Origin: Leptospiraceae bacterium
Lineage (GTDB): Bacteria; Spirochaetota; Leptospiria; Leptospirales; Leptospiraceae
Assembly (NCBI GenBank): GCA_024233865.1
Contig: JACKPA010000012.1
Coordinates: 64,001-128,000 of the forward strand
Length of the DNA: 64,000 nucleotides
Direction: 5' to 3'
The position numbers and the translations under genes were made by a program. Below the pieces are notes generated by a model. It made no database searches. It had not been told where the DNA came from and worked only from the letters and a program-made list of their open reading frames with translations. This document shows positions 8,147 through 45,764 of the stretch, one piece after another (position 1 is the stretch's first letter; every line of letters begins with the position of its first letter).

Positions 8147-8204
8147 AAATTCTCCTTGGGGATTTTAATGCACAAAAGTCATGGTTCCCTTCACCAGGAT
8201 CTGC

Positions 8205-9170
8205 TCACCATGGCACCGTACTCTTAAAGATATTTTCAACTATTTTGCTCTCAATATTTTCATATTGCTCATTAAAGTTTAATAGGTCTATGCTAGATTT
8301 ATAAATAGTTCTTAGTCCGAAATTCCCATATTCGCTTTTGACCCATTTACTTATTTGATATTTGGTCTCTTCTTCTCTATTTTTTTGTATTTTAATACTT
8401 AACATGAAGTCAAACAGTTCTCTGATACCGATTTGATTGATTACGCTTGTTTGAAATATTGGTGGAATTTCATGATTTAGAAACGTATCTTTTAAAAAAT
8501 CAAGGGAAGTTATAAGTGTATGGTAGCTTGCGGCAGCAAGCTCTTTTTCATCACATTTGTTGATAACAAAAGCATCCGGGACTTCCATAATTCCACTTTT
8601 CATAAATTGAATTTGATCACCCGCCAAAGGTTGTAAAATAAGAAAAGAATAATCCGTTAATTTGGACACTTCTATTTCATTTTGACCGATACCGACTGTC
8701 TCCACAATTACATAATCAAAAAAGTATCGCAATAACCGCAACACATGATAAGTAAATGGATTAAGCCCGCCAAGCTCTAGTTGACTGGGTTGAGAGCGAA
8801 AAAAAATGCGATTCTCTCTTGCCGGAATGGTTACTCTTGTTCGATCACCAAGTATGGAACCACCGCTAATATTGCTAGACGGATCAATGGCAAGTATTGC
8901 CAACCTTTTGTTTTGAGTGTGTTTCAAAAACTCTTGGCAAATCTGCCCGATCAAAGACGATTTACCAGCTCCTGGAGTACCTGTAAAACCTATGGTTATA
9001 CACTTTTTATCGGCTTGAGAGAAATTTTCTATTTCCTCAAATATAAATTTCCTAAACTCAAAAGAATCAATTCGTTCTATTTCCGAAATTAATTTTGCAA
9101 GAGGATACTTTTCTCCACTTGCGGTTTGTTTAATAAGATTTATTACTTGTTCTTTATCCACAGTTCCCAT
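8205..9170 (-). CDS. meaB: MeaB/ArgK-like G3E-family GTPase (methylmalonyl-CoA mutase chaperone)
   Basis: P-loop GFTGTPGAGKSSL. The size (321 aa) and overall pattern fit the G3E family. Confidence 0.7.
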   Translation of the reverse strand: MGTVDKEQVINLIKQTASGEKYPLAKLISEIERIDSFEFRKFIFEEIENFSQADKKCITIGFTGTPGAGKSSLIGQICQEFLKHTQNKRLAILAIDPSSNISGGSILGDRTRVTIPARENRIFFRSQPSQLELGGLNPFTYHVLRLLRYFFDYVIVETVGIGQNEIEVSKLTDYSFLILQPLAGDQIQFMKSGIMEVPDAFVINKCDEKELAAASYHTLITSLDFLKDTFLNHEIPPIFQTSVINQIGIRELFDFMLSIKIQKNREEETKYQISKWVKSEYGNFGLRTIYKSSIDLLNFNEQYENIESKIVENIFKSTVPW

Positions 9171-9262: not shown

Positions 9263-10639
9263 CTAAAAAACAAAATAGATAAATGGTTTTGTATCTCCAC
9301 TTAGCAATACAGCAACCATGATTACAATTGCAAAAAGCAGTCCGTTGTACCAAGTAAATCTTTTTCCTAAAACCTTTTCTATAGAATCGCCATAGCACCA
9401 ACCCAATAAATGGGCAATAACCATAAAAAAGATCACATAAAAAAGCCTCATACTCAAAAAATAATTACAATCTACTCCCACTCTCCTATCAAACAAGCCA
9501 GAAAAAAGGGAATAGGCTACTTGAAAATTTTCAGCTCGGAAAAATACCCACAAAAGGCAAACCATACACACCACAAATACAGCATACAAAACACGAAACA
9601 ATTTTGACAAAATAAGCAGTATGGTTCGACTCCGCTCACCAACCAAGTTAAGGAAGCAGTTATGGACATTGAGCGTAGTCGAAATGTTCATAAAAGATCG
9701 CTCTATTGTCAAAAACAAGCCATGCATTCCACCCCAAAAAATAAATGTCCAATTTGCTCCATGCCACAAACCACCTAATAACATCGTAAAAAGCAAATTT
9801 CGATAAGTTCTAAATTCTCCTCTGTGGTTTCCACCTAAAGATATATACAAGTATTCACGCAACCAAGAAGACAGAGAAATGTGCCACCTATTCCAAAAAT
9901 CCCTAAAACTAGTAGCCATATAAGGCAAACGAAAATTCTCCGGTAATTGAAACCCTAACAGAAAAGCAACTCCTACAGCAATATCTGAATATCCACTAAA
10001 ATCACAATAAATCTGAATGGAATAGGCAATAACACCTAACAAAACAAAACTCCAAGAGACTATGGTTGAATTTGCAAATACTATATCGGAGATAATCGCA
10101 ATATTATCAGCAATAACCGACTTTTTGATATAGCCCAACAAAATATAATAAAGAGATAATTTCAGGGGTATTTCAGATATTGTTTTGATTGGTTTAATTT
10201 TAAATTGAGGCAGTAATTCCTTTGCTTTTACAATCGGACCCGCAACCAATTGTGGGAAAAAAGATAAAAATAAAGCGTAATTTAAAAAGCTATTTTCCGG
10301 CTTGATTTCACTTCTATAAACATCAATAGTATAGCTCAAAGATTGGAACGTATAAAAAGATATACCTACAGGCAATACGGTATTTACGAGCTGATAAGAA
10401 ATACCCAAACCTATAACATTTGCAAATTGAATAAAACTACCTATGAAAAAGTTATAGTATTTAAAAACACAAAGAATCCCTAAATCAATAGAAATAGAAA
10501 TGGAAAGCAACCATTTTTGGTTAAGAGGTTTCTCGCAATAAATTTTTTTTGCGAGAAAAAAATCTGAAAGGGTAGTAAACAAAATAAGAAAAATAAATCG
10601 AACATCCCAAGCGGCATAAAACAAATAGCTGCAAATCAA
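9263..10639 (-). CDS. MBOAT-family membrane O-acyltransferase (AlgI/DltB-like)
   Basis: Polytopic protein. Conserved WHISLSSWLREYLYISLGG and WHGANW histidine motifs. Confidence 0.8.
   Translation of the reverse strand: MICSYLFYAAWDVRFIFLILFTTLSDFFLAKKIYCEKPLNQKWLLSISISIDLGILCVFKYYNFFIGSFIQFANVIGLGISYQLVNTVLPVGISFYTFQSLSYTIDVYRSEIKPENSFLNYALFLSFFPQLVAGPIVKAKELLPQFKIKPIKTISEIPLKLSLYYILLGYIKKSVIADNIAIISDIVFANSTIVSWSFVLLGVIAYSIQIYCDFSGYSDIAVGVAFLLGFQLPENFRLPYMATSFRDFWNRWHISLSSWLREYLYISLGGNHRGEFRTYRNLLFTMLLGGLWHGANWTFIFWGGMHGLFLTIERSFMNISTTLNVHNCFLNLVGERSRTILLILSKLFRVLYAVFVVCMVCLLWVFFRAENFQVAYSLFSGLFDRRVGVDCNYFLSMRLFYVIFFMVIAHLLGWCYGDSIEKVLGKRFTWYNGLLFAIVIMVAVLLSGDTKPFIYFVF
9621..9685. repeat. 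R1 palindromic element copy (GGTTCGACTcCGCTCACC ... TGAGCGTAGTCGAA) inside the MBOAT CDS
   Basis: Left and right arms match the intergenic copies at 30975-31028 and 41010-41092. Read in-frame as ..ISTTLNVHNCFLNLVGERSRTI.. Confidence 0.5.
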
Positions 10640-11027
10640 TAAAAAAACATTTGTTAGATTAATTTTTGTTTGTATCCAAATGCTCGTTTCTAAATAAGAA
10701 ACAAACCATCTAATAACAAAAACTAAGACAAAAAAAAAAGAAATTCCGGTGAAGAAAAGTTCATATCTAAATAACGATTTTTGGGCAGTTAATACTCACG
10801 TCTATACAAATTTTATTTTTCACCACATATAAAAGTCTGTTATTACAAGTAGTTTCGATATGCTAGCTTCGAAATCGCACTGCTCAACGACCGTTAAATC
10901 AAAAAACCACTTTGTGCTGAGAGTATGCTCTATCTTAAAAACTCTACTTAATGACCGTTCTATGGCATACGACAAAATGATTAAAATCAATCAAATTTTC
11001 AAAGCAACCAAATTGATTAATTTTAAT

Positions 11028-14392: not shown

Positions 14393-15148
14393 ATGATTAT
14401 TGTATCGATAGCCAACCAAAAAGGTGGAGAGGGCAAAACAACCACTTCAATAAATCTAGCTGATGGAATAGCTAGAAGAAATAAGAGAACTTTGTTAATT
14501 GATATGGATCCACAAGCAAATTCGACCGGTATATTTTTAAATTCCGATCAAATAGAAAAATCAATGTACCATGTTTTTAATTCTTTTGCACCTGTAAAAG
14601 AAATTATCCACAAAACCAAAGTCGAAAATCTTGATATCGCTCCTTCTGAGCTAAAATTGGCCGAAATGGAAACAAGGAGTTCTAATACGGTAGAAGCTCC
14701 TTATATACTGAAAGACGCTTTGAGCAACCTAAATAATGAGTATGACATCTGCATAATCGATTGTCCTCCTAGTTTATCCATCTTTACCATCAATGCTTTG
14801 GTTGCTTCCAATTATATAATCATTCCTTTACAGGCAGAAAAGTTTTCGATTGATGGCATAATAGGACTACAAGGCACTGTTGATAATATAAAAAAGAGAA
14901 TCAATCCTCAACTACAGATTCTAGGAGCACTTATTACCCAATTAAAACCCCAGACATTATTAACAAAAACAATCGTACCAGTAATTGTAAAGTTTTTTAG
15001 GTTGTTTGATACAACAATTTCAGACGGTGTATCTGTTGGAGAAAGCAATATGGCAAGAAGTTCTGTTTACACCTATAATAAAAAAAGCAAACAAGCGCAG
15101 GAATATGAAAACTTTACAGAGGAAGTTTTAAATGAGCTCGAAAAGTAA
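14393..15148 (+). CDS. parA: ParA/Soj partition ATPase
   Basis: Deviant Walker A NQKGGEGKTTTS; 251 aa. Overlaps parB by 17 bp. Confidence 0.9.
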   Translation: MIIVSIANQKGGEGKTTTSINLADGIARRNKRTLLIDMDPQANSTGIFLNSDQIEKSMYHVFNSFAPVKEIIHKTKVENLDIAPSELKLAEMETRSSNTVEAPYILKDALSNLNNEYDICIIDCPPSLSIFTINALVASNYIIIPLQAEKFSIDGIIGLQGTVDNIKKRINPQLQILGALITQLKPQTLLTKTIVPVIVKFFRLFDTTISDGVSVGESNMARSSVYTYNKKSKQAQEYENFTEEVLNELEK

Positions 15149-15980
15149 AAGATTAGGGACTCTTGTTGATATATTTCAAGCAGAAACATTAGAAGGCTCT
15201 ATAAAAAAAATTAAAATAGACTCAATACAACCCTCTGATACTCAACCTAGAATAGATAGAAGGAAAGCAGTCGATGAATTAGCAGAAAGTCTAAAACAAA
15301 ATGGACTTCTGCAACCAATTCTAATAACAAAAAGAGATGGTGAAAGTAATTACAGAATTATAGCAGGAGAGAGAAGATATCATGCTGCCAAATCATTAGG
15401 GTGGACAGAATTAGAATGTAAAATATTAAATAAAACAGAAAAAGAAACCTACAAACTAGCCATTATAGAGAACTTACAAAGAGAAAACCTTACTCCCTAT
15501 GAAGAAACAGAAGCCATTGCATTTTTAAAAAGCAACTACCATTATACAGATCTGGAATTAGCAGAAATCTTCGGAAAAAGCCGAAGTTATATGACTGAAA
15601 TATTAAGCATCTCCACACTAAATAAAGATGAGATGCAAATTTGCAAAGAAAACGGTATAGGTACAAAAAACCTTCTTGTTCAGGCTGCACAAGCCTCTAA
15701 AAAAGGAGATTTCACTGAATTCATAGAGCAAATAAAAAATAAAGAAATCAAAACAGTTAAAGACGCAAAAAAATTTAATAAAAAGATAACCATTGAAAGC
15801 GATAACACTTTAAACGATGCTATCCCCCTCAATACCCCCAATGAAAACCACCAAGAAACCAAAAGTAATTATACAATAACAAAAGATTCCAATCAAATAA
15901 TTATACAAGTCAGCAATCATGAGCTTATCAATAAAATCTATGAGTTTATAAGCCAAGAATTAGCAAATCTTCAGCTATAA
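15132..15980 (+). CDS. parB: ParB/Spo0J partition protein
   Basis: ParB box IIAGERRYHAAKSLGW. The N-terminal ParB/Srx fold is followed by a divergent C-terminus. Confidence 0.85.
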   Translation: MSSKSKRLGTLVDIFQAETLEGSIKKIKIDSIQPSDTQPRIDRRKAVDELAESLKQNGLLQPILITKRDGESNYRIIAGERRYHAAKSLGWTELECKILNKTEKETYKLAIIENLQRENLTPYEETEAIAFLKSNYHYTDLELAEIFGKSRSYMTEILSISTLNKDEMQICKENGIGTKNLLVQAAQASKKGDFTEFIEQIKNKEIKTVKDAKKFNKKITIESDNTLNDAIPLNTPNENHQETKSNYTITKDSNQIIIQVSNHELINKIYEFISQELANLQL

Positions 15981-16550: not shown

Positions 16551-17609
16551 ATGAGACATAAATTAACTTATAATCGAAGGGTGTCAATAATTTTTGATTA
16601 TATTTTGCTTAATATTAGTTTTTTTTTATCAAAAGGAGAAGGTATGAGCGAGAATTTTCAGTATTTTAAGTTCATGACTGATATTATAGACTCTGGGACT
16701 TGGGCAAAGCTGTCTTCCGCTGCCAAAAGCTTGTATCCTGTGTTGCTAAAATTTAGTGACCAGACTTTCAAGTATGTATGGCCTAGCACGGAAACCTTGA
16801 TGAGGCTGACCGGCTTCAAAACTAAAAAGTCTGTCATCTTGGCAAAAAAAGAACTTATGAACGTAGGACTTATCCGCACAGTCTCAGGTTCTGGGAGAAC
16901 TAATTCCAGATACTATTTTTCTTTTAATTACGAGGGTTCCAAAATTACACCTCTGGGGGATAAAGAAATATACCGATCAGGTGTATTGAAATCAACCGCA
17001 GAGGCATGTCCGGCTACATCTTTAGGGGATAGCTCAGCAAACCCAAACAATATTAATATAACTATAACCAATAATCCAGGTCAAAAAGCAAAAAATTCGA
17101 GTAATAAAACCAAAAATACTGACAACTATTTTAAAAACAATTTTTCTGAAGATGTATTATCTTATGAATCTTTGCTAGATATTTATGGAATTGAAATATT
17201 AAACTACGCTTATTCCATAGCTCAAAAGAGAAATCTGGAAAATGATATTTCTCACATAAAAGATATCTGCAAAGCTCGTGTTAAAGAAATTAGCTCTACA
17301 CTTGTGGGAGCAAAGCAAACACCAAACAATAACCTCGAAATATCGAGTATATGGTCTAATTTTATTAGATGGACAGAGATTCACTTGACTTCAACATCGA
17401 TTGAAATGATAAAAAATGCAAATATTCTCATTGAAGGACGAACAATTATTGTTCAAGGGGAGTTGAATAAATATTTGCAGCAAGTTATTGTGAAATATTT
17501 TTCTGAAAAAGTTACTCCTAAAATATTTATTTCTTTTAGTAATAATGAAAAGATAAATGGTAAAGCTTTAAATGGTATCGAATTTTCAAAAAACGGACAT
17601 TTTGATTGA
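16551..17609 (+). CDS. Winged-HTH replication-initiator-like / regulatory protein
   Basis: Probable true start at 16644 (ATG preceded by AAAGGAGAAGG). The N-terminal wHTH resembles plasmid/phage Rep N-domains (..SAAKSLYPVLLKFSD..WPSTETLMRLTGFKTKKSVILAKKELMNVGLIRT), followed by a low-complexity linker. Confidence 0.45.
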   Translation: MRHKLTYNRRVSIIFDYILLNISFFLSKGEGMSENFQYFKFMTDIIDSGTWAKLSSAAKSLYPVLLKFSDQTFKYVWPSTETLMRLTGFKTKKSVILAKKELMNVGLIRTVSGSGRTNSRYYFSFNYEGSKITPLGDKEIYRSGVLKSTAEACPATSLGDSSANPNNINITITNNPGQKAKNSSNKTKNTDNYFKNNFSEDVLSYESLLDIYGIEILNYAYSIAQKRNLENDISHIKDICKARVKEISSTLVGAKQTPNNNLEISSIWSNFIRWTEIHLTSTSIEMIKNANILIEGRTIIVQGELNKYLQQVIVKYFSEKVTPKIFISFSNNEKINGKALNGIEFSKNGHFD

Positions 17610-17760: not shown

Positions 17761-20277
17761 ATGATAAAGAAGAATATTAGAATTAGCCATCCAGCAGATA
17801 TATTAATCAAACAAGTTGAGACAAAAGGAAAATATGATTTAGAAAATGGTAGTCTCAATCATTTTAGTTACGAATCTGCTTCTATCGAGATTTCAGCTAT
17901 TGCATTACAACTACAAGAAGATTCGGCTTTTAATTTAGTTCAATTTGAATTTATTGAAGGCGAAAAAGAGTTTTTACCGGAAATTTTTAGATTTGAGATT
18001 TCAAGAGACGGATTAGTTTGGGAACCTATTATTCAAGAGTATAAATACTCTAGTTTAAACAAAAATTTCTGCAAATGGAACTTTTCGTTGGTTCAAACAA
18101 ATTTTTTTAAATTGGTAATCAAACCAACAAGGAGAACCCAGAAGGGAGATTATAAAGTTTCATTCAAAAACTTCAAATTAAAAATATCCGGTATTGAGAA
18201 AATTATAGCCAGTTCTGAAAATGATAGGTATTGGGTAAAAGAAAACCTTGTTGATGGCAGAAAAGATTATGGTTGGTCTTCTAAAGAAAAGAAACAATCT
18301 AGTGAAGAGTTTGTTTTATTTGATTTGGGTTCTATTAATAAAATTGAGGAATTTCGCCTTTTAACTAAAAACGAATCCGAAACGAATTTTCCTGAAAATT
18401 TCGTTGTTTATTATAGCGAAGATGATTTGTCTTGGTTTCAATTGCTAGATGAACCTCACTTTCTCTCTGAGCCTGCAACTTGGTACTCATGGAAGTTTTT
18501 ACCTATAAATATGAGGTTTATGAAAATTGTATGTTTATGCGAAAATTTAAATTCCCAAGGTTTGTATGTAAGCCAGTTTGTTGAAGTTGAGATATATGCT
18601 TCTACTGATGAAATTAGTTTTTCTGGGAAAATTAATAGTTTGGATCCCCCCCCCTACTCTTCTATAATTAGGTCTGGTTTGGTTCGCCTTGCCGGTAATG
18701 GTGAATCAAGAGAAGGAGTTGTCGTCCAGGGTAATGATAGAAGACTAATGGATGCTACAATTGAGTTTAAAGGAATTGTAGAATTAGCCAGCGATGGCGA
18801 AGATAGAGAAGGAGTTGTCGTCCAGGGTAATGATAGAAGGTTAAAAATTGCTACTGAAAATAATTATGGTTTGGCAAAATTAGCTAAAAATAGAGAATGT
18901 AGAACGGGGATTGTTGTTCAAAGTGATGATGATAGACTAAGAACCGCAACTACGGAATATTCTGGGATTGTGGAATTGGCTGAGGACGGGGAAACTAGAC
19001 CTGGAACTGTTGTTCAAGGTAACGATAGCCGTTTGAAAAAAGCAACTACAAAAGATTACGGGTTAACTGTAATGGCTGAATTAGGTTCTGATTTACCTGG
19101 AAGAGTTATTACCGCTGATGATCCAAGAATTAAAAAAGCTACCACCACAAAAGAAGGAATTTTAAGATTTGCTCACAATGGCGAAAGTGAAGGATTATGT
19201 GCTGTTCAAGGCAGTGATAAAAGGTTAAAAGAAGCAACTACCGAAAGTTTTGGAATTGTGAAACTAGCTCACTCCGGAGAAGGAAATGAAGGAAAGGTCA
19301 TTCAAGGCAATGATAAAAGGTTAAAGGAAGCCACTGAAACTGAACCCGGCATTGTATCATTTGCCAAACATGATTCTAATGTAGCCAACAAAGCAGTACA
19401 AGCAAACGATCCAAGACTATATGATTCTAGAGAAGCGAAACCGCATACGCATGATTATGCTCCAAAAGTTCATGACTATAATTCTCATACCGGACTGATT
19501 CGCCTAAAAGGAGAAGTTCAGTCTCAGTTTAAACATATCGTTGTTCCACCTCAGAATCATGGAGTGATATACGGGAAAAATGAAGCAACATCGGGAGCTG
19601 GAATTGTTGGAGTAGGTGAAGATGAAGGGGTTTTAGGTTATTCTAATGATTATGGAGTTGTTGGCTATTCAGGAAGTTCAAAAGAAGATTCGGCTGGTAT
19701 ATGTGGGTTTGCTAAAAAAGGATTCGGAGGGGAATTTACTTCCCAGTCTTCTTATGCTTTATGCGCTAATGGTAAGGGAGTAAAGAAAAAAGATATATCC
19801 GGTTCCGGAAAAGCTGTATTGGCATTGGGAAACTCTGAATTTCATGGAATGATTAAAATTGAAGATGACAATGCTTCTCATTGTATTGCTGCATGTTTTA
19901 CTTTGCTTCAGAATGAAATTATCTCGGAAGGAGACATTATCGTTATTGGCGAAAAAGATGGTAAAATAGCAAAATCAAAAACAGCGTATTCTACTAGAGT
20001 TATTGGAGTTGCAGTTTCTTCAATGTCGATACAGCTAGGACGGGATAAAACAAAATCGGAAGATGTGTTAGTTGCTCTTTATGGCATGGTAAAAATTAAT
20101 GTAGATGCTTCCGATGGTGCTATTCATTTTGGTGATTTACTTGTTTCTGGTCTAACCAGTGGTCATGCAGTAAAAGCTGATACCAATAAACTAAAGCCAG
20201 GAATGATTGTTGCAAAGGCTTTAGGTGAATGTAAGAAAGATAGATTACTTATTCCAGCTATTCTAACTATTCAATAA
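17761..20277 (+). CDS. Phage-tail-fibre-like repeat protein with two N-terminal discoidin (F5/8 type C)-like domains
   Basis: ~9 tandem ~28-aa repeats (GIVELAxDGExRxGxVVQGNDxRLKxATT) resemble the tail-fibre 'GxVxLAT-xE-xxGTD' repeat. The protein also has a Gly-rich segment and a C-terminal beta-rich domain. A C9 homopolymer in-frame at 18646-18654 encodes PPP. Confidence 0.6.
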   Translation: MIKKNIRISHPADILIKQVETKGKYDLENGSLNHFSYESASIEISAIALQLQEDSAFNLVQFEFIEGEKEFLPEIFRFEISRDGLVWEPIIQEYKYSSLNKNFCKWNFSLVQTNFFKLVIKPTRRTQKGDYKVSFKNFKLKISGIEKIIASSENDRYWVKENLVDGRKDYGWSSKEKKQSSEEFVLFDLGSINKIEEFRLLTKNESETNFPENFVVYYSEDDLSWFQLLDEPHFLSEPATWYSWKFLPINMRFMKIVCLCENLNSQGLYVSQFVEVEIYASTDEISFSGKINSLDPPPYSSIIRSGLVRLAGNGESREGVVVQGNDRRLMDATIEFKGIVELASDGEDREGVVVQGNDRRLKIATENNYGLAKLAKNRECRTGIVVQSDDDRLRTATTEYSGIVELAEDGETRPGTVVQGNDSRLKKATTKDYGLTVMAELGSDLPGRVITADDPRIKKATTTKEGILRFAHNGESEGLCAVQGSDKRLKEATTESFGIVKLAHSGEGNEGKVIQGNDKRLKEATETEPGIVSFAKHDSNVANKAVQANDPRLYDSREAKPHTHDYAPKVHDYNSHTGLIRLKGEVQSQFKHIVVPPQNHGVIYGKNEATSGAGIVGVGEDEGVLGYSNDYGVVGYSGSSKEDSAGICGFAKKGFGGEFTSQSSYALCANGKGVKKKDISGSGKAVLALGNSEFHGMIKIEDDNASHCIAACFTLLQNEIISEGDIIVIGEKDGKIAKSKTAYSTRVIGVAVSSMSIQLGRDKTKSEDVLVALYGMVKINVDASDGAIHFGDLLVSGLTSGHAVKADTNKLKPGMIVAKALGECKKDRLLIPAILTIQ
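18700..19330 (+). repeat. Coding tandem repeats (~84 bp x ~9) of the tail-fibre-like protein
   Basis: Reiterated ..GTTGTTCAAGG(T/C)AATGAT(A/G)GA.G..TAAAA.. blocks encode VVQGNDRRLK units. Confidence 0.6.
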
Positions 20278-27817: not shown

Positions 27818-29541
27818 AGTTATATATTCTTGTTTTCTTTTTTATTTTTGTTTTGCCCTTTATGTTATTCTCTCAAAACGTAGAAAAGCCTGCGGAAGAA
27901 ATTCCTGTTGATTCGATTCAGTCTCCTAATGATTTTCCGTTGCCTACTCGAATGGGTAGAAAAAAGTATCACAGATATGTCGAACTTCTTTCTGCTGAGC
28001 AGAGTGAAATTTTAATTAATTATTTTGAACCAAAAGATTTGATAGAAAAGGAGTTTATTTTATCTGTTAAACTTACCAATCCCCTACTCTTCCCAAAATA
28101 CTTCAAAAAAAAAGAAGGCATTGGAGTTATTCCGGATTTCGGCATTCGCCTAAATCGGAATATTAGATTGTATTTAGCTCCTTACCAGCATGAAGAAGAA
28201 ATGGGTAAAGCTATACCCAATACGGAAATTTCCAATAAAACCGATGAATACTACTTTTTTGCATCCACTGATTCCAAAATTCCAACAGGTCAAGTAGTTG
28301 ACGTATCTATCTATAAAACGGAAGAAGCAATTGAACCCATTCATTCCATCACCTATCAAATGCCAGACAGACCTCAAAACTATCCTATAATCAATGAAAT
28401 CACTCCTTCTGCAGGAATTGCCGGTGATACAATTACTATCCTCGGAAAATATTTGGGTAGCAGGGCTGAAAACATCACGATTCTACTGACACAAGGAAGC
28501 AAGAGTATAAAAATCCCTACTCTGTATCTATCTCATTCTGATAAGACAGGAATCGATGAGATTAAATTTGACATACCATATAACTTTAGCGCTGAGAGAC
28601 TCAAGCAATACCAGAGTATTAAGTCTATATGGGAGTTGACCTCTTTTAACGTAAAGGTATTTCACAATTACTATCCTTCTGTAAACGATGTGGAAGTTAA
28701 AATACTCCGAGAGAAATGGAGGATGTATATGTTTTTGATCAGTTTAAGCTTTATTGTACTGTTTATCGTTATGGTAGCCTTTATGACCAAAACATGGAAC
28801 TTTCTTCCAGATGTTTTGATTGATAGACGTTCCAATTCATATAGCTTATCTAAGTTTCAGGCTTTTTGTTGGACCATCACTCTGTTTGGAAGTTATCTTT
28901 TTGTGGCAATTTGCAATGGAGTTTTGATTGGGAAAATTCCTGATTTTAACCTGTCTTTGCTTGGTTTATTAGGGATCAGTTATGCTGGACTCATTGGTTC
29001 AAATACAATCGACAAACGGAATCCGAAAAATAAATTGAGAAAAACCAAACCATCACTGGGTGATCTAATTTCTCATAATGGTGAAATCGACATAACCAGA
29101 TTGCAAATGTTTGGATTCACACTCATTACGATTTTTTTATACTTTTTTAATCTTGCTAATTCCAATATTTTAGAAGGTTTACCCAGTATTCCCGATTCGC
29201 TACATACACTTTTGCTAACAAGTCAAGGTGGTTTTTTGGGTGGAAAATTGATGGGTGATAAAATAACCGTTATGCACATTGAACCTTCTGTGATTGATAT
29301 CTCGAATAAAAATGCAAGCATAAGTATTATAGGAAATGGCTTTATGGATGGGATAAAGGTTATGTTAGATGGGTATAAACCAATACGAGCTGATTTTGAT
29401 GACCCTAGTACGATTTCCGTTTCTCTACCTGAGATAAAAAAGGTAGGAGTAAAAAGCATTACCATAATTCCTACGTTTGGAAATACGTTTTTAATCAAAG
29501 ATGCTATTGAGTTTGTGGATGAAAAAATAGAACAAGTGTAG
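27814..29541 (+). CDS. Membrane protein with IPT/TIG-like domains
   Basis: Signal peptide. IPT-like ITPSAGIAGDTITILGKYLG and ISIIGNGFMDG. Central cluster of 3-4 TM segments. Confidence 0.5.
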   Translation: MKLYILVFFFIFVLPFMLFSQNVEKPAEEIPVDSIQSPNDFPLPTRMGRKKYHRYVELLSAEQSEILINYFEPKDLIEKEFILSVKLTNPLLFPKYFKKKEGIGVIPDFGIRLNRNIRLYLAPYQHEEEMGKAIPNTEISNKTDEYYFFASTDSKIPTGQVVDVSIYKTEEAIEPIHSITYQMPDRPQNYPIINEITPSAGIAGDTITILGKYLGSRAENITILLTQGSKSIKIPTLYLSHSDKTGIDEIKFDIPYNFSAERLKQYQSIKSIWELTSFNVKVFHNYYPSVNDVEVKILREKWRMYMFLISLSFIVLFIVMVAFMTKTWNFLPDVLIDRRSNSYSLSKFQAFCWTITLFGSYLFVAICNGVLIGKIPDFNLSLLGLLGISYAGLIGSNTIDKRNPKNKLRKTKPSLGDLISHNGEIDITRLQMFGFTLITIFLYFFNLANSNILEGLPSIPDSLHTLLLTSQGGFLGGKLMGDKITVMHIEPSVIDISNKNASISIIGNGFMDGIKVMLDGYKPIRADFDDPSTISVSLPEIKKVGVKSITIIPTFGNTFLIKDAIEFVDEKIEQV

Positions 29542-29542
29542 C

Positions 29543-29566
29543 ATGGTTCGGCTACGCCCACCATGT
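29543..29566. repeat. R1 element, degenerate left-arm copy (GGTTCGGCTACGCCCACCATG)
   Basis: Lies directly after the stop of the 27814-29541 gene. Confidence 0.4.
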
Positions 29567-29810
29567 TGTAAAAGTGCTGTTTGGATGGTAACCACAGATA
29601 CTGGATATTTTCCGTTCCTGTTTTTCCATACATCAGGTATCCAACCGTCTCACTGGAGCATCCCCAGTGCAACTCCACTGACGTTTTCTGGACGTTCAAT
29701 GCTCCAAAATACGTCACCTTCATTCTGTTAATATCATCCGACTTTTCCAGTGGTCGTTTGTTGCATCCTACAACCAAAATTGCCATGAATAGTATAAATA
29801 GTTTCAATAA

Positions 29811-29840
29811 CCCCCCTCGGTCCCCCCGTGAACGGGGGGA
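29811..29840. repeat. R2 G/C-rich hairpin element (CCCCCC-TCGGT-CCCCCCGTGAACGGGGGG)
   Basis: 6-bp G:C stem with GTGAAC loop, preceded by a second C6 run, in an otherwise ~35% GC region. Confidence 0.55.
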
Positions 29841-29842
29841 AG

Positions 29843-30472
29843 TCAAAAGCTCTTCAAAACAGACAGTTGCAAACCGCCGTTTCCGTAGCCGATGTATTTT
29901 TCTACAATTGCGTTTCCTCTCAGTCCCACTCGGACTACAAACCCTGCAAACTTTAGTCCCTGCCATCCGATTTCTGTCATAAACATTGGATCAGCACCCT
30001 CCGCGTGGTGAGCGGAGTCGAACCATACACCTCTTCTTCTTTTGAAGTTGATGTAAGATACTCCCACTCCAAAATTGCCATAAAAGTCGAGCATGGAACT
30101 TATCTTGTATCTGTATTGCAGGTAGAGTATGTTGTTCACCATTTTGTAGTCTGCGTCGGTCATCGAGCCTGGTCGAGATGTAGAGCGTGTGTATTCCAAG
30201 ATGTATCCCAATCGCATGGAATCCGATATATTCAAGAAATCCGGTTCAAACTGGAATCCTCCTCCAGCAGCAGCACCGTTTACCTTTCCTGCCGGTGTGC
30301 CATTTCCAAAATAGTGAAACTGTAGTCCGATCAAGTTTTCATCTTCTTCCTTTTTCACTGGTTCCGTCTTTTTGGTATCCGGTTTTTTTGCTTTGCTTGG
30401 CGGTGTTTTTTTTCCACTTTGAGCAAGCATCACACTTGGTAATAATAATACGATAAGCAATACTTTATACAT
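29843..30472 (-). CDS. Outer-membrane beta-barrel-like protein with Lys/Pro-rich N-terminal linker
   Basis: Signal peptide. Alternating hydrophobic beta-strand pattern, C-terminal aromatic (..KSF). Confidence 0.4.
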   Translation of the reverse strand: MYKVLLIVLLLPSVMLAQSGKKTPPSKAKKPDTKKTEPVKKEEDENLIGLQFHYFGNGTPAGKVNGAAAGGGFQFEPDFLNISDSMRLGYILEYTRSTSRPGSMTDADYKMVNNILYLQYRYKISSMLDFYGNFGVGVSYINFKRRRGVWFDSAHHAEGADPMFMTEIGWQGLKFAGFVVRVGLRGNAIVEKYIGYGNGGLQLSVLKSF

Positions 30473-30959: not shown

Positions 30960-30974
30960 ATAATCTCAATTGTA

Positions 30975-31028
30975 TGGTTCGACTACGCTCACCATGCGAG
31001 TCCGATCCCTGAGCGTAGTCGAAGGGAG
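30975..31028. repeat. R1 palindromic element, full copy, intergenic
   Basis: GGTTCGACTACGCTCACCATG-cgagtccgatc-CCTGAGCGTAGTCGAAGGGA: inverted arms with core TTCGACTACGCTCA. Confidence 0.6.
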
Positions 31029-31032
31029 CATT

Positions 31033-34450: not shown

Positions 34451-34486
34451 GCTTCATTTACCCCCGTTCACGGGGGTAAGTGAAGC
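34451..34486. repeat. R2 G/C-rich hairpin element (inverted orientation) embedded in a 16-bp-arm palindrome GCTTCATTTACCCCCG-TTCA-CGGGGGTAAGTGAAGC
   Basis: Core CCCCCGTTCACGGGGG is the reverse complement of the 29822 and 63741 cores. One mismatch in the 16-bp arms. Confidence 0.55.
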
Positions 34487-34682: not shown

Positions 34683-35516
34683 ATGTTAACTTATAAAGAA
34701 AAAAAGAACTTTAATATAGAAGAAATGGAGATTGAGGACAGTAAACCGGTGGACAACATTTTTTCTGAAAAGCAAATGAGACTACTTACCGAGCCTTTGT
34801 ATACCTCATGGAAACCCAAAGAGCACATAAATTTTTTGGTAACTGCCAATGTTGGAATATTCACCGAAATATTAGAAAACCCAATTGTTCCAGATGTTTT
34901 GCTAAGTCTGGAAGTAGATATACCGGAAAGCAGAAAAAAAAAGGAAGATTTATGTTACTATTTGGACAAAATCGGCAAAGCACCGGAGGTAGTGATAGAA
35001 ATCGTATCCAATAAGGAAGGAAACGAATTGGATAGTAAGCTAAAAGACTATGGGAAAATCGGAGTTTTGTACTATACCGTTTATGATCCCGATTTACACA
35101 TATTGAAAGGAAATCCGGTAAGTAGCTTTAAGTATAAAAAAGGAATGGCATTTAGAATAGAAAAATCTTGGTTTGAGGAAGTGGGTTTGGGACTCAGATT
35201 ATGGGATGGAATTTTTGAGAATCAACATGGAACATGGCTTAGGTGGTGTGACTACTTTGGAGAAGTGATTCCTACCGGAAAAGAGTTGGCAGAACTGGAA
35301 AGACGTAAAACGGCAATAGAGCAAAAACAGAGAATAGAAGCTCAAAAACAAAGAATGGAGGCTCAAAAACAAGCTGAAGTAGAGAAAAATTGCAGAATGG
35401 AAACTCAAAAGCAAGCTGAAATAGAGAAAAATTACAGAATGGAAGCACAAAGACAAGTTGAACATTTGGCTCAAAAGTTACGTGAACTTGGCTTTAATCC
35501 GGAACAAGATTTGTAA
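34683..35516 (+). CDS. Uma2-family (DUF820) putative endonuclease with C-terminal EAQKQ coiled-coil repeats
   Basis: PDVLLSLEVDIP...PEVVIEIVSNKEG..D...K...Y...GVLYYTVYDP is the PD-(D/E)xK Uma2 signature. 39-bp tandem repeats at ~35330-35450. Confidence 0.7.
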   Translation: MLTYKEKKNFNIEEMEIEDSKPVDNIFSEKQMRLLTEPLYTSWKPKEHINFLVTANVGIFTEILENPIVPDVLLSLEVDIPESRKKKEDLCYYLDKIGKAPEVVIEIVSNKEGNELDSKLKDYGKIGVLYYTVYDPDLHILKGNPVSSFKYKKGMAFRIEKSWFEEVGLGLRLWDGIFENQHGTWLRWCDYFGEVIPTGKELAELERRKTAIEQKQRIEAQKQRMEAQKQAEVEKNCRMETQKQAEIEKNYRMEAQRQVEHLAQKLRELGFNPEQDL

Positions 35517-39777: not shown

Positions 39778-40998
39778 TTAATTAAAAAAAAATTCCATTT
39801 CTTTTTTGAGCCAAAGGATACGAACGATAAGCATAGCCAAAAGCACAATGCCAAACCACAAAATTCCAAAATCATTGTAAGATTTTTTAGAATTTTTGTA
39901 CAAAATGATCATAGGGATGCTGAGAGTAAACATTCTCATTATGTTATCGTAAGTTAGCCAATAACCTTGTTCGGCAATCCCGGCAGTAAAAAGGATGAAT
40001 AAAATTGGAAGAAACCAAACAAAATCTTGAACCGTTTTAATATTTCTTAAATTCAAAAGCAGTAGCAGATAAAAAATAAAGATCGGATATTTTGCCAGTT
40101 CTCGAACAAAAGGTGATAGATTCATTGGAGTCGAAAACGAAATGCTTTTAAAAAAGCCAAAAAACGGATAATCGATCAAATCAAGAAATGTTAGTGGATA
40201 TGTTCCGGGATTGGCATCTAAAAAAAATCGAAGGTAGAAGACAAAGGCAAAATAAAAAATTATAGACCCCCCGACTAGTCCAAGCAAACTTTTAGTCTCA
40301 TTACTCCCCCCTGTTGGGGGGAGTATTTGGACTGAACTAGAACTAAAGCTATTTGGGGGGTAGCTTCTTTTCAGCCATAACAATAACAATAACATCCCCA
40401 TTATGCTGAGAGCTGATTCTTTGATCAAAACGAAAAAGCAGCCAAGCAGTAGCAAAACAGATATCTTTGCCGGTTTGTGGCAATCTTTTTGATTCAAAAA
40501 GTAGAATATAAAAATCGTCCAAGAGCATACCAAAGAATCGGATAGTAGTAATAGGTTTGAGTTGATTACAAAAGGCGAAAACAGATGGAAATTCGCCAAA
40601 TAGCGGATTTCTTTTTTGCAGAGTTTTTTGAGCATAACAAAGGACATAATGTGAGATAGGTGTAGTATTGCTAAAGTGATAACCGGATAGGCTTTTGTGC
40701 CAAATATTTTTGAAAAAATTGAGGTTAGCAAGGGAAGCCCGATTCGAGTAAATCGAACACTAAATGAGTCCAAAATCGGAAGTTGCGAAGAAACACCACT
40801 CAAATACTGATTGATCAAATAAAAAAATTGCCCATCATATCCACCACTTTTATATACCACAAAACCTTTATCAACAAAATCGGGATTCAGGTTCAAAAAT
40901 CCTTCCCAGATCCCAATCATCGAAGAAAGGTTGTAATCATAAGGTTTTATGCGATAATAAATTAAAATTACGTTTAAAATAATGTATAAAAATATCAT
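39778..40998 (-). CDS. Polytopic integral membrane protein (GT-C-like/unknown) carrying an in-frame G/C-rich hairpin insertion
   Basis: ≥9 predicted TM helices. Hairpin CTCCCCCCTGTTGGGGGGAG at 40304-40323 encodes ..LPPTGGS.. in-frame. Confidence 0.5.
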   Translation of the reverse strand: MIFLYIILNVILIYYRIKPYDYNLSSMIGIWEGFLNLNPDFVDKGFVVYKSGGYDGQFFYLINQYLSGVSSQLPILDSFSVRFTRIGLPLLTSIFSKIFGTKAYPVITLAILHLSHIMSFVMLKKLCKKEIRYLANFHLFSPFVINSNLLLLSDSLVCSWTIFIFYFLNQKDCHKPAKISVLLLLGCFFVLIKESALSIMGMLLLLLWLKRSYPPNSFSSSSVQILPPTGGSNETKSLLGLVGGSIIFYFAFVFYLRFFLDANPGTYPLTFLDLIDYPFFGFFKSISFSTPMNLSPFVRELAKYPIFIFYLLLLLNLRNIKTVQDFVWFLPILFILFTAGIAEQGYWLTYDNIMRMFTLSIPMIILYKNSKKSYNDFGILWFGIVLLAMLIVRILWLKKEMEFFFN

Positions 40999-41003
40999 TT
41001 TTT

Positions 41004-42152
41004 CTATGGGACATTTCGACTACGCTCAATGTCCGAATTATGCTTTCTCTTATCGTAGTCGTGCGTTCCCTGAGCGTAGTCGAAGGGAACAGCCATCACT
41101 AATTTCGCCAAAGTTTCTATAAACATCGGATAAATTCCCGATGCAGGAACTCGATAATATTCGATGATTCCATTTTTGTGGGCGATTTCTTTCAATTCTT
41201 CGCCAATTTCAAACAATGTTTCCAGATGATCACTCACAAAACTAATGGGAATAATAGCTACTCGTTTAACACCTTCGTTTCCCAGTTGTTTTAGCATGTC
41301 AATTGTATTAGGTTCTGTCCATTTTCCTTTACCTACCCTACTCTGAAATGATAAATAATCTCTCCCCATAAAGCCAGCTTTTCGCAAATTTGTCGTAATT
41401 TTAGCCCTACAATCCTCTAATTCTTGAACGTAAGTATCTCCTTTTTTGATCAACCTCATTGGTATTCCATGGGCAGAGTAAACCAAAGTGAGATTTTGCC
41501 AATCTTCAATCGGTTCTTTTCGATTCAATTGAATAAAGTTTTTTACCAATTTCCCATAAAAATAATCCAATATCAATTGAGTTGCTGCCTGTAAATAAGA
41601 TGGTTCTTTATAAAATGGTCCGATCCAACCTGGCTCTTTTCTTGGATCAGTCCCGATAATTTGTTCTATTATATTTACAACACTTAAAACGGTTGATCGA
41701 GAAAAATGAGGAAACAAAGGTAGTAAAATATTATCTTGGGAAGGAATTAACCTGGATTTTTCCATATCTCGCAAATTAGGATAACCGGCTGTCATTGCAA
41801 TATCAACAGACCAATCTTCACCTGTTTTGCTTTTTAGCAAAGTTTCGAGAGTTTTAGCTTGTTTTTCCGTTTCGGGAACAAGAGGAGAACCACCGCCAAA
41901 GCCCATTTTTAAATAACTTTTGGCAACTTCCGGAGTTCGTCTTTTGGTTATAAACTTTGCCAGCTTTAAACGAAAAAATTCCGGTAGAGGAACATCAAAA
42001 ACAAAAGGATCACTCAAAACATCCCAAAGAAACTTTTCTATTTCCGCAGGATTTCTTGGACCACCAAAGTTAATTAATAATACTCTTTTTTTCAAACTAT
42101 TATTCCGTTTTTTTTGGTTCCAGATAAAACTTTTTGATATATGCGACTTCAA
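41004..42152 (-). CDS. hemH: Ferrochelatase
   Basis: VLLINFGGP..FL.DVLSDP, GGGSPL, and C-terminal SDHLETLFEIGEEL. Confidence 0.8.
   Translation of the reverse strand: MKSHISKSFIWNQKKRNNSLKKRVLLINFGGPRNPAEIEKFLWDVLSDPFVFDVPLPEFFRLKLAKFITKRRTPEVAKSYLKMGFGGGSPLVPETEKQAKTLETLLKSKTGEDWSVDIAMTAGYPNLRDMEKSRLIPSQDNILLPLFPHFSRSTVLSVVNIIEQIIGTDPRKEPGWIGPFYKEPSYLQAATQLILDYFYGKLVKNFIQLNRKEPIEDWQNLTLVYSAHGIPMRLIKKGDTYVQELEDCRAKITTNLRKAGFMGRDYLSFQSRVGKGKWTEPNTIDMLKQLGNEGVKRVAIIPISFVSDHLETLFEIGEELKEIAHKNGIIEYYRVPASGIYPMFIETLAKLVMAVPFDYAQGTHDYDKRKHNSDIERSRNVP
41010..41092. repeat. R1 palindromic element, extended copy downstream of hemH
   Basis: TTTCGACTACGCTCAATG ... ATCGTAGTCG ... CCCTGAGCGTAGTCGAAGGGAAC. 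Confidence 0.6.
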
Positions 42153-43254: not shown

Positions 43255-44031
43255 ATGAAAGAAGAAAAAAGCTCTAAAGAAGCAAATATAATTGCTGTAT
43301 CCAACCAAAAGGGAGGTGAAGGAAAAACTACTATTTCGCTTTTTTTATCAGAAGCGCTTTCGGAACATTTTAAAGTTTTACTTATTGATTGGGACGCACA
43401 AGCCAATGCAACAAGATTGTTTGTGAATAATCCGGAAAAGTCTATTTTTCACTGTTTAAAATATAGAAATAATTCACCAATTTCAATGAATGTGATAACT
43501 AAGCATATCACTGAGAATTTTCATTTGATTCCATCTTCTATTTCATTGGCTAACCTAACAACTCCTTTCGATATAGAAGATTTTGAATTATTAAAGGATG
43601 CTATCGAACCATTAAAACCTCTATATGATTATATTATTATAGATTGTCCTCCTTCTCTGGGATTGGTTTTGGAAAATGCTCTAATCGCAGCCGATTATGT
43701 AATTATACCAGTTCAAACCAGAGCTTTTAGTGTTCAGGGTTTACAAGATTTGTACAACTCTATTGAAAAAATTAAAAAAAGAGCAAATCCAAATCTTAAA
43801 TTATTGGGTGCAATCTTGAATCAATATGAAGAGAGTAGGGCATTGTCGGGTTTATCAAAAAATATTCGTAAATACTTTCCTGTATTCAAAACGATTATAT
43901 ATAGAAAAGAAAATATTCCGCAAGCTCAAGCCAAAAGAAAATTGTTGAAAGGATGTGATCCAAAAACAAGGAAGAATTTTTATGAACTTGCAAATGAAAT
44001 TCAGGAGCATATAAATGTCGAAAAAAAATGA
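43255..44031 (+). CDS. parA: ParA/Soj partition ATPase (second copy)
   Basis: Deviant Walker A NQKGGEGKTTIS. Overlaps parB by 17 bp. Confidence 0.85.
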   Translation: MKEEKSSKEANIIAVSNQKGGEGKTTISLFLSEALSEHFKVLLIDWDAQANATRLFVNNPEKSIFHCLKYRNNSPISMNVITKHITENFHLIPSSISLANLTTPFDIEDFELLKDAIEPLKPLYDYIIIDCPPSLGLVLENALIAADYVIIPVQTRAFSVQGLQDLYNSIEKIKKRANPNLKLLGAILNQYEESRALSGLSKNIRKYFPVFKTIIYRKENIPQAQAKRKLLKGCDPKTRKNFYELANEIQEHINVEKK

Positions 44032-44713
44032 ATTTGGAGCATTGGATTTAATTTCCGTATATGATGAAAAAAAGGAAAATCCTGATAAAATTCCAATTTC
44101 TGAAATTATATCAAATCCCAACCAACCAAGGGTATTTGGTAAAGATAATGTAGATGATTTGCTTGATTCTATAGAAAGGCTCGGTTTGATAGAGCCGATT
44201 GTTGTAAGAAAGGACTTAGATGGGTATGTCCTTGTTGCGGGAGAAAGAAGACTAAATGCTGCCACAAAATTAGGCTGGAGTGAAATTCCAGCCATTGTAA
44301 CGGATGCCAATCCTGATGTTTGTTATGAGATGGCATTGGCAGAAAATGAAAAAAGAAAGAGCCTTAATCCTTGGGAAGTGGGAAGAGCTATTGATTATTT
44401 AAGGAAGGAAAAAAATAAAACCGCTGATGAGGTTGGTAAGATACTCGGCTACACACCTAGATATATTAAACAGTTAAACGCTATTGCTAGAATTGAGCAA
44501 GATGTTGTGAATGAATTTATACAAAAAGGAAATGAGCCATCTATAAAAAATTTAGAAAGACTGCTTAAAATGCAAAGCGGAGAAGAACAACCAAAATATA
44601 AATATGTTCCAAAAAACAATAGGATAGTTATTGATTTAAAAAGAATTCCTGAGCAAGCCAGAGTTGATTTTATGGAAGAGCTTCAGAATTTAAAAATTAA
44701 GTATGGGATATGA
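44015..44713 (+). CDS. parB: ParB-like partition protein (second copy, short)
   Basis: ParB box LVAGERRLNAATKLGW; 232 aa. Confidence 0.8.
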   Translation: MSKKNEFGALDLISVYDEKKENPDKIPISEIISNPNQPRVFGKDNVDDLLDSIERLGLIEPIVVRKDLDGYVLVAGERRLNAATKLGWSEIPAIVTDANPDVCYEMALAENEKRKSLNPWEVGRAIDYLRKEKNKTADEVGKILGYTPRYIKQLNAIARIEQDVVNEFIQKGNEPSIKNLERLLKMQSGEEQPKYKYVPKNNRIVIDLKRIPEQARVDFMEELQNLKIKYGI

Positions 44714-44843: not shown

Positions 44844-45764
44844 ATGAACCGTAATTTAAGGTTTAGTAATCTAGAAGACGTAGAAAAAGAACTAAAGAAA
44901 TTAGAAAACTCAAAAGTAGAGGCTAGTAGCTTTCTGAATTATTATCAAATTTTAAACCATTGTGCAGATCATATATACTTCTCTATGATGGGTTTTCCTG
45001 GAAGAAACTGGCCCTTTTTTATACGAAAAACTTATGGCAAGTATAAATTATCTCAAATCATGGAAGAAGGTTATATCCAACCGGATTCTCCTTTGCCTTA
45101 TGCTCCTAAAGAGAACGAAGATGGGAACGAAGATATTGCCATGGATAAACTAAAAAAAGCTATTGTAGATTTTAGAGATTATGAAGGTTCTTTGTCTGCT
45201 CATCCCTTTTATGATTTGTTAACCAAAGAATTATGGGAAAAATTTCATTCTATGTATATTGCAAATTTGTTAGGGTTTGTAAATGTAGTTGAGAAAGTTG
45301 AAGCAAAAGTTCCTAATACTAAAATGGTCGAGCCATCCAAACCAGTTATAGAAGAATCAAAACCTAAAAAAGCTGTTGTTAAAGAGCCAGAAAAAGTTCC
45401 TCAAAACAAAACTAAAATAGAGCAAATAACAACAACATCCTCACCTTCAAAAAAGAAACCGGTAAGTAAAAAAACTATTCCTGCTCCCGTTTCTAAAAAA
45501 TCTCTTATAAATACTTCTAAGAAAAAAGCTATAAAAGAAGTGGATAAACCTGCTGCAAAAAAGAAGCCTCAACAAAAATTGAAGCCGGATATTATTGCTA
45601 AAAAGAAACCGGTAAGTAAAAAAACTATTCCTGCTCCTGTTTCTACAAAATCTCCTATAAATACTTCTAAGAAAAAAGCTATAAAAGAAGTGGATAAACC
45701 TGCTGCAAAGAAAAAGCCTGCTTCTAAGCAGAAAATTAAGGAAACTGTAAAAAAGAAACGTTAA
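44844..45764 (+). CDS. Hypothetical protein with Lys-rich histone-H1-like C-terminal tail containing a ~130-bp tandem duplication
   Basis: Globular N-terminal domain. C-terminal KKKPVSKKTIPAPVSKKS.INTSKKKAIKEVDKPAAKKKP is repeated twice (DNA 45450-45579 and 45600-45719). Confidence 0.45.
   Translation: MNRNLRFSNLEDVEKELKKLENSKVEASSFLNYYQILNHCADHIYFSMMGFPGRNWPFFIRKTYGKYKLSQIMEEGYIQPDSPLPYAPKENEDGNEDIAMDKLKKAIVDFRDYEGSLSAHPFYDLLTKELWEKFHSMYIANLLGFVNVVEKVEAKVPNTKMVEPSKPVIEESKPKKAVVKEPEKVPQNKTKIEQITTTSSPSKKKPVSKKTIPAPVSKKSLINTSKKKAIKEVDKPAAKKKPQQKLKPDIIAKKKPVSKKTIPAPVSTKSPINTSKKKAIKEVDKPAAKKKPASKQKIKETVKKKR

Follow-up and report, generated by a model that had tools for sequence, protein, structure and literature searches.

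In a 64,000-nt stretch of contig JACKPA010000012.1 (positions 64,001 to 128,000) of the Leptospiraceae bacterium assembly GCA_024233865.1, hereafter the window, a short palindromic repeat (R1 in the initial annotation) lies both between genes and inside the open reading frame (ORF) of an MBOAT-family protein. This raises the question of what the repeat is and how it came to be part of a coding sequence. We found that it is a structured hairpin repeat distributed across bacterial phyla, with copies that are inserted in genes or polymorphic between strains. The same hairpin family is strongly and specifically associated with a minimal GIY-YIG gene, with which it forms discrete units. The copies in the window are probably non-autonomous derivatives of this GIY-YIG-associated element, of the kind known from repetitive extragenic palindromic (REP) sequences and MITEs (miniature inverted-repeat transposable elements).

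The window has a G+C content of 34.6%. Searching both of its strands with the 14-mer TTCGACTACGCTCA and up to two mismatches returned nine matches where 0.15 are expected, and none of 100 shuffled sequences reached nine. With three mismatches only four more were obtained, which is chance level (2.4 expected). The repeat is thus a dispersed family, present in intergenic and in coding DNA, as initially annotated. The nine cores represent six loci, three singlets and three inverted doublets (Table 1). Half copies had been placed at 29543-29566 and 48486-48520, and both are solo hairpins. Of two full copies listed as intergenic, the one at 30975-31028 is confirmed and was also found in contigs L331 and L332, whereas the one at 41010-41092 encodes the last 29 residues of a ferrochelatase. 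A further copy, in an outer-membrane-like coding sequence, had been missed. The candidate suspected at ~8181-8215 shares CATGGTTC...GCTCACCATGG with the ATGG-stem module, but its 15-nt centre differs and its fold does not exceed that of shuffled sequences, so that its membership is uncertain and it can be regarded as a possible variant only. The 9 kb to the left and 7.8 kb to the right of the window contain no additional hairpin and no nuclease gene. Four copies touch genes: those in the MBOAT gene, in the outer-membrane-like protein, in ferrochelatase and at the junction of a Kelch-like gene.

The two arms had been described as one bipartite palindrome. This does not describe the unit, as each arm is a self-contained hairpin with its own stem and doublets join modules of unlike stem type, always in the order TTCGAC..GCTCA followed by its complement. 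The repeat unit is a single hairpin of 22-30 nt (~26 nt), in which a short, covarying stem of 3-8 bp carries a conserved 13-14 nt loop, 5'-TGAGC-GNA-GTCGAA-3' (reverse complement TTCGAC-TNC-GCTCA). The stem varies by copy (GTATGG/CCATGC, GGACAT/ATGTCC, GTTCCC/GGGAAC, GCTCCCT/AGGGAGC) and the loop is constant apart from its position 7, which is free (T47, C43, A26, G16). We defined the family by a TGAGC-N2-3-GTCGAA loop and a complementary stem of at least 3 bp, and all nine window hairpins fit this definition. Covariation was assessed in 116 distinct sequences from viral contigs and the window that were chosen by the loop alone. The three closing stem pairs are formed in 67-72% of these, compared with ~33% when the partner column is slid; many changes in the closing pairs are compensatory, and the observed score was reached by 0 of 500 shuffles. 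Covariation in a set chosen in this way is evidence for a real local stem. A strand-specific wobble test of the stems (40 G·T vs 64 A·C) is not informative on strand. Judged by its bases, the loop would fit a C-G-closed GNA triloop flanked by UGA/GAA. Doublets have significant folds (z = -2.1 to -3.8), but in the predicted minimum-energy structure both loops pair into one long hairpin; for singlets local folding is predicted. There are also long-loop relatives in which the central three bases are replaced by an inner stem-loop of 20-45 nt between TGAGT and GTATCGAA.

The copy within the MBOAT ORF is not a chance similarity. Its first arm (9619-9641) is complementary to 30006-30028 at 23 of 23 positions and its second (9664-9687) to 41011-41034 at 24 of 24, above the limit of <12 bp below which the initial annotation itself would have read the arms as coincidence. 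The encoded segment starts 24 residues past the WHG motif (residues 292-294) and within the Pfam MBOAT match, which agrees with the location first given. The paralog at 53803-55206 is shorter in this interval, as had been noted, and a better comparison is provided by the syntenic ortholog P0002 (L001/L002; 66% identity), whose locus has the gene order of the window (ParB-ParA-HTH_8-...-71-aa-MBOAT). Alignment with this ortholog reveals the suspected indel: it is without 48 nt at the doublet site and has no core. The doublet is also present in GCA_020440835.1, another assembly of this species with 99.8-99.96% identity to the window. The MBOAT copy is probably an insertion of 71 nt that keeps the frame and is tolerated in a variable loop, to which it adds 23 element-encoded codons and no stop. 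Contrary to what had been assumed, the ORF itself is not intact. The true start is the ATG at 10762-10764 (conserved MNFSSPEF), from which the frame runs into a stop after a T10 run, where a -1 frameshift cuts off the N-terminus. GCA_020440835.1 is 99.96% identical and gapless across this locus, and no called gene is listed there. The frameshift could be a homopolymer error common to both assemblies, or it could reflect a pseudogene or a phase-variable tract. Upstream of the gene, at 10790-11010, the window has ~260 nt of extra intergenic DNA relative to L001, with no recognisable R1 core.

Two other proteins contain element-encoded residues. The outer-membrane-like ORF (29843-30472, annotated H7A23_19505) specifies a 209-aa signal-peptide protein ending ..VLKSF and is read through a solo hairpin in frame; the outer flank of this hairpin, CCCTCCGCGTGG, is similar to the terminal inverted repeat described below for two GIY-YIG units, L246 and L257. 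In ferrochelatase the Pfam domain ends at M353, and codons 354-382 (29 residues, AVPFDYAQGTHDYDKRKHNSDIERSRNVP) are wholly element-encoded. The ortholog P0125 (77% identical) ends with ..LVIKANEQKK and a stop, and DNA homology ceases at 41095, the edge of the element. One further assembly begins within this doublet.

At the fourth gene-associated copy, closely related strains differ. The hairpin lies directly 3' of the stop codon (29539-29541) of a TIG-domain gene, and this stop codon pairs in the extended stem. From 32110 to 29565, ENA contigs L331 and L333 align with the window at 99.3% identity and without gaps. They diverge exactly at the hairpin edge (29564/29565), where in place of the hairpin they have the continuation of an intact Kelch-like ORF of 327 aa. 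In the window the Kelch-like gene is truncated and abuts the stop codon of the convergent TIG-domain gene. With the breakpoint marked by a slash, the reverse strand of the window reads ..CACTTTTACAAC/ATGGTGGGCGTAGCCGAACCAT.. and the contigs read ..CACTTTTACAAC/GTAACAGG... The window's junction is present in three other assemblies (L335-L337), two of which end 50-80 nt past it. All same-species contigs carry the MBOAT, 30002, 30971 and ferrochelatase copies, and no variant without them was found. Since strains diverge at a hairpin edge and assemblies end at copies, the hairpins are sites of recent structural change. The copies lie between genes, in protein loops, at a gene 3' end and at a junction, and are therefore best described as inserted, recently unstable DNA and not as a conserved regulatory site. 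L331 departs from the window a second time at ~32110, inside a lipoprotein-like paralog, and rejoins it at ~34542, next to a Uma2-family (PD-(D/E)XK) nuclease gene (34683-35516) and a G+C-rich hairpin, which makes this a rearrangement-prone region.

Table 1. Hairpin copies in the window and the genes in which or beside which they lie.
Feature	Position	Strand	Details
Possible divergent copy	8178-8213	+	CATGG TTC-[15 nt]-GCTCA CCATGG; MeaB / Na-Ca exchanger spacer
MBOAT (AlgI/DltB-type) ORF	9263-10639	-	458 codons; host of doublet; PF03062 over residues 117-353
Inverted doublet in MBOAT ORF	9619-9689		encodes N318-I340 on minus strand
MBOAT module 1	9619-9641		TGG stem, loop TTCGACTCCGCTCA; spacer 9642-9663
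Core, MBOAT	9625-9638	+	
MBOAT module 2	9664-9689		GGACAT/ATGTTC stem, loop TGAGCGTAGTCGAA
Core, MBOAT	9670-9683	-	
T10 homopolymer, MBOAT frame lost	10730-10739	-	-1 frameshift, from alignment to L001
Solo hairpin at strain junction	29542-29564	+	CATGG TTCGGCTACGCCCA CCAT; z = -2.2
Core	29547-29560	+	
Kelch-like gene remnant	29566-29966	-	truncated at hairpin
Solo hairpin in frame in outer-membrane-like ORF	30002-30029	-	loop TTCGACTCCGCTCA, minus strand; reads ..RRRGVWFDSAHHAEG..
Core	30009-30022	-	
Intergenic inverted doublet	30971-31030		ATGG-stem module, then TCCC-stem module; both loops perfect; z = -3.6 and -3.7
Core	30978-30991	+	
Core	31010-31023	-	
Inverted doublet ending ferrochelatase	41008-41090		GGACAT-stem module, 36-nt spacer, GTTCCC-stem module; stop TAG 41004-41006
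Core	41015-41028	+	
Core	41071-41084	-	
Solo intergenic hairpin	48490-48519	+	GCTCCCT TCGGCTACGCTCAG AGGGAGC
Core	48497-48510	+	

The hairpin is not restricted to Leptospiraceae. The 18-mer GGTTCGACTNCGCTCACCA has at least 120 matches in a 596-Gb genome collection, where ~17 are expected by chance, and by record titles the matches listed span about 20 phylum-level lineages. These include Bacteroidota, Ignavibacteria, Omnitrophota, many Patescibacteria, Cyanobacteria, Acidobacteriota, Chloroflexi, Planctomycetes, Verrucomicrobia, Elusimicrobia, Fibrobacter, Zixibacteria, Clostridia, Spirochaetes (Treponema, Turneriella) and several proteobacterial classes, with Nostoc calcicola and Sphingobacterium humi among the cultured isolates. 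The stem is extended by at least one further pair in 125 of the 132 matches listed from the genome set, and a reversed-motif control is nearly absent from this set (12 occurrences vs 388). Viral contigs contain at least 120 matches to the bare 14-mer, and about half of those listed have complementary flanks. Gene context was counted in 2 Mb of genome loci ascertained by the hairpin. Here hairpins are ~4-fold or more enriched in intergenic DNA and show no orientation bias relative to transcription (56 vs 47 in unidirectional spacers), and convergent as well as divergent spacers are occupied.

The same 2 Mb point to a partner gene. Two of the eight ORFs with hairpins on both sides are stand-alone GIY-YIG proteins of ~90 aa, and all four GIY-YIG ORFs in these loci have hairpins at a distance of at most 100 nt. 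The partner protein contains a GIY-YIG domain (PF01541, E = 4e-18). A tblastn search with the Sphingomonas protein also matches Bacillus subtilis yazA, and similarity to this annotated gene suggests that the partner nuclease belongs to a YazA-like group. For an independent test we used 80 metagenome loci that were retrieved solely by alignment of three GIY-YIG proteins. Hairpin density is 2.56 per kb in the 150 nt upstream of the GIY-YIG gene and 2.76 per kb in the 200 nt downstream, compared with 0.07 per kb in the remaining 286 kb, which corresponds to a ~35-fold enrichment beside the gene; within the gene there are none, and the reversed-motif control gave about 0. Of the 80 GIY-YIG genes, 36 are flanked by hairpins, compared with 7 of 200 ORFs of other kinds from these loci (odds ratio 22.6, p = 1.9e-16). 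Among the flanking loops are the three variants of the window, TGAGCGTAGTCGAA, TGAGCGGAGTCGAA and TGAGCGTAGCCGAA.

The gene and its hairpins behave as a unit. Both sides of a given GIY-YIG gene have the same hairpin subtype and outer flank, and in L246 and L257 they form terminal inverted repeats of 29-36 nt, CCCCCTCCGTTCGTGG-TGAGCTTGTCGAA-CCATGCA, to which window positions 30002-30036 are similar, outer flank included. Other loci are arranged as [doublet]-gene-[doublet], for example [F-R]-gene-[F-R] in L248 and L316. Otherwise unrelated contigs are similar over only 345-430 bp, that is, the GIY-YIG gene with its hairpins, and one pair of related contigs has the unit in opposite orientation and at a different place with respect to the neighbour genes that they share. 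In a complete replicon of cultured Sphingomonas parapaucimobilis, the neighbours of a gene annotated as 'GIY-YIG nuclease family protein' (WP_347092679.1) are nrdR and an RNA methyltransferase gene; a hairpin doublet lies upstream of the GIY-YIG gene, and its 3' end includes a hairpin. In Methylobacterium, a homolog is flanked on both sides by long-loop hairpins. In L261 a group II intron (849-2656; Rfam D1-D4, domain V/VI) is located ~300 nt downstream of a GIY-YIG unit flanked by long-loop hairpins.

We propose that the hairpins would be the recognition ends of a 0.35-0.43 kb element whose only gene is the stand-alone GIY-YIG nuclease of ~90 residues. The nuclease may mobilise its own unit and, in trans, hairpin-only copies, presumably acting on an extruded or single-stranded hairpin. 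The pair would then be analogous to the REP-associated tyrosine transposase (RAYT) acting on REPs and their inverted doublets (REPINs). More tentatively, such ~0.4 kb units, a GIY-YIG gene in hairpin brackets, could constitute an undescribed cross-phylum class of minimal mobile elements with the window repeats as their non-autonomous offspring, a possibility in which our confidence is limited.

Several observations weigh against this proposal. Among the 80 GIY-YIG loci 44 have no short-form hairpin, several of them carrying long-loop relatives, and the query was built from hairpin-adjacent genes, so that the enrichment holds for that clade and not for all GIY-YIG genes. There is no GIY-YIG gene in 81 kb of this genome (the window and ~17 kb beyond) and no transposase of any kind in the window. 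Searches with peptide patterns found no relative of the GIY-YIG clade in viral contigs although the hairpin occurs there, and therefore gene and hairpin are not found together in every case. At the window copies neither a target-site duplication nor a defined insertion signature is readable, and by nearest-neighbour energy single modules with short stems do not surpass shuffles. In addition, the MBOAT interval is length-variable among homologs and the hairpin-bearing loop of the outer-membrane-like protein is 11 residues shorter and 4 residues longer in two homologs, so that the insertion boundaries in both are approximate.

Some of these observations would also be expected if the GIY-YIG nuclease were not the mover. 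The main rival explanation holds that the hairpins are landing or homing sites of the nuclease gene, or that both share permissive spacers, and that the hairpins were spread by an unseen RAYT or other transposase, by gene conversion or by template switching. The lack of a nuclease gene near any window copy and the viral contigs with hairpins in which GIY-YIG relatives were not found are compatible with this explanation, and the [F-R]-gene-[F-R] arrangement in L248 and L316 would also result from insertion into a hairpin array. Against it are the shared stem subtype and outer flank on the two sides of a given gene, which form true terminal inverted repeats in L246 and L257, and the fact that unrelated contigs cease to be similar where the hairpins end on the outside. 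ORFs of other kinds in these loci are seldom flanked, and the window has no Y1 or other transposase. We consider this explanation unlikely, if still worth serious attention.

A host-beneficial role is improbable. Under this explanation the hairpin would be a structured element under selection, such as a stabiliser or terminator at RNA 3' ends, a regulatory RNA, or a nucleoid or DNA-structure site, with the genic copies incidental. Its intergenic enrichment would fit, and a loop conserved across phyla argues for a constrained recognition surface; UGA..GAA on either side of C-GNA-G could allow tandem G·A pairs together with a GNA triloop. Yet divergent spacers are occupied too, copies lie inside ORFs, one copy truncates a gene, and strains that are 99.3% identical differ in the presence of a copy. 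This strain polymorphism and the absence of an orientation bias make a host function less likely. No relevant Rfam family was matched by the window, by individual copies or by 13 GIY-YIG loci, at the gathering threshold or at E <= 10. We specifically considered intrinsic terminators and rejected them, as the hairpins are not followed by a T-run and 21 were called as terminators compared with 14.7 ± 4.3 by chance, again without orientation bias.

An origin from a tRNA T-arm or 3' end, suggested in the initial annotation, is largely refuted and can hardly be maintained: the ATGG-stem subtype does read GGTTCGACTCCGCTCACCA, which recalls GGTTCGAnTCC...CCA, but there are several interchangeable stems, among which GG..CC is just one (elsewhere the copies read CATTTCGAC and CCCTTCGAC), T-stem pairing is not seen in the 5' flank, neither a tRNA nor a tmRNA was called by ARAGORN, and Rfam gives no tRNA-like match even at E <= 10. 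Penelope-like GIY-YIG elements carry hammerheads. A hammerhead ribozyme was rejected for the present hairpin, as only UGAG..CGAA (the stem-II-proximal core) is present, the structure is two-way and Rfam finds no hammerhead at E <= 10.

The initial classification as MITE/REP-like named the right general kind, and the repeat as first noted is a member of a kind already known. REPs are documented inside genes, where they sometimes supply stop codons (PMC3733652), and Leptospirales have been reported to be MITE-rich (PMC11602168). In its behaviour the present family is closest to the REP/REPIN-RAYT systems, which likewise consist of 20-40 nt hairpins, occur as singlets and inverted doublets, are mostly extragenic and occasionally genic, and have inverted repeats that bracket a small single-domain nuclease gene. 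They differ in that REPs and REPINs have GTAG or CGTC at the stem foot, whereas the feet vary here (ATGG, GACAT, TCCC and others); GTAG occurs only inside the present loop, where its T is the freely variable position (GNAG). In REPs conservation lies in the stem; in the present family it lies in the loop, with the stem free to vary. The RAYT is an HUH Y1 transposase, the gene flanked in the present family is GIY-YIG, and the window has no PF01797 gene. Finally, REP families are lineage-specific, in contrast to a loop conserved across about 20 phyla.

The in-frame copies are closest to the Rickettsia palindromic elements (RPE), reportedly described by Ogata et al. in 2000. These are also palindromic repeats found in frame in protein-coding genes, apparently tolerated in loops, to which they add peptide segments. 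RPE are 100-150 bp long and restricted to Rickettsia, whereas the present modules measure 22-30 nt and the doublets 60-85 nt, occur in many phyla and have a candidate partner gene; we know of no enzyme associated with RPE. MITEs derived from insertion sequences (IS), e.g. Correia/NEMIS, are similarly short, non-coding, non-autonomous, multi-copy and mostly intergenic, and bear inverted repeats. The present hairpins are much shorter, and their inverted repeats are themselves hairpins. They match the inverted ends of GIY-YIG units, no direct repeats flank the copies and no DDE/IS transposase is related. The small dispersed repeats (SDR) of Nostoc, said to have been described by Elhai et al. in 2008 and to measure 21-27 nt, are by description alike in being very small, apparently mobile and found in hairpin contexts. 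Nostoc genomes carry the present hairpin (L175, L178, L218), and to our knowledge no nuclease partner has been proposed for SDR.

On the side of the enzyme, GIY-YIG homing endonucleases (T4 Seg proteins, I-TevI) and YazA-like proteins have the same catalytic domain. The gene described here also shows the selfish behaviour of homing endonuclease genes, being a discrete unit in varying contexts. Homing endonucleases differ in their size of 200-250 aa, their separate DNA-binding domains and the lack of hairpin brackets, compared with ~90 aa and brackets here. We know of no repeat association reported for YazA-type proteins. In the openly searchable literature we did not find the GIY-YIG association described, nor any bacterial precedent for GIY-YIG with REP, MITE, terminal inverted repeats or hairpin; a phylogenomics paper on the GIY-YIG superfamily contains no mention of a hairpin association, and none of ten variants of the loop sequence was found in about 8 million literature texts.

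The window contains further repeats and variable genes. A second family of G+C-rich hairpins, CCCCCCGTGAACGGGGGG, occurs at 29822-29839, 63741-63758 and, in reverse-complement form, 34461-34476, with a variant at 40306-40321 inside ORF 39778-40998. The decamer GAACGGGGGG also belongs to the outer terminal repeat of some GIY-YIG units, with 14 occurrences near those genes compared with one elsewhere, and this second family may be another module of the same element family. At 62470-62492 lies a hairpin CCCCTCTCC-N-GGAGAGGGG, the same type of which is found beside R1-type hairpins in L137 (Turneriella) and in L182 and L203 (Clostridia); this suggests that several cross-phylum hairpin families travel together. 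The window encodes an HTH_36 protein (16551-17609) and, within 30 kb, two parA-parB pairs (14393-15980, 43255-44713), a relative's contig (L001) has the same ParB-ParA neighbourhood, and the contig may be a plasmid or secondary replicon. Two genes have internal repeats: at least five diverged 96-nt (32-residue) tandem repeats at 18691-19334, in a protein of 838 aa that has an F5/8 type C (discoidin) domain, and two 120-nt copies, 96% identical and 150 nt apart, at 45450-45719 in the DUF1569 gene 44844-45764. An Eco57I/TaqI_C-type restriction-modification gene (62287-63816) is a 509-aa ORF in the window and an 811-aa gene in the 99.8%-identical GCA_020440835.1 (L327 7095-9531), where it adjoins MNT/HEPN and SNF2/PLD genes. 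The defence island of this gene may vary between strains.

Environmental bacteria commonly contain very short dispersed hairpins, which give rise to many spurious small ORFs and odd peptide segments (FDYAQ, SLSVVEG, RLRS). The gene models for MBOAT, ferrochelatase and the outer-membrane-like protein hold element-derived residues and should be annotated accordingly. Outside REP/RAYT the origin and spread of such hairpins are largely unexplained, and if their partner were a nuclease from another superfamily that is conserved across about 20 phyla, the two would provide a testable enzyme-substrate pair. If our proposal is correct, it would account for assembly breaks and strain rearrangements at hairpins and would offer a way for 70-nt palindromes to turn into protein sequence of membrane enzymes and of outer-membrane proteins. 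The family would then be a GIY-YIG counterpart of REP/RAYT, whose 26-nt hairpins insert in frame, rewrite protein termini and mark rearrangement junctions.

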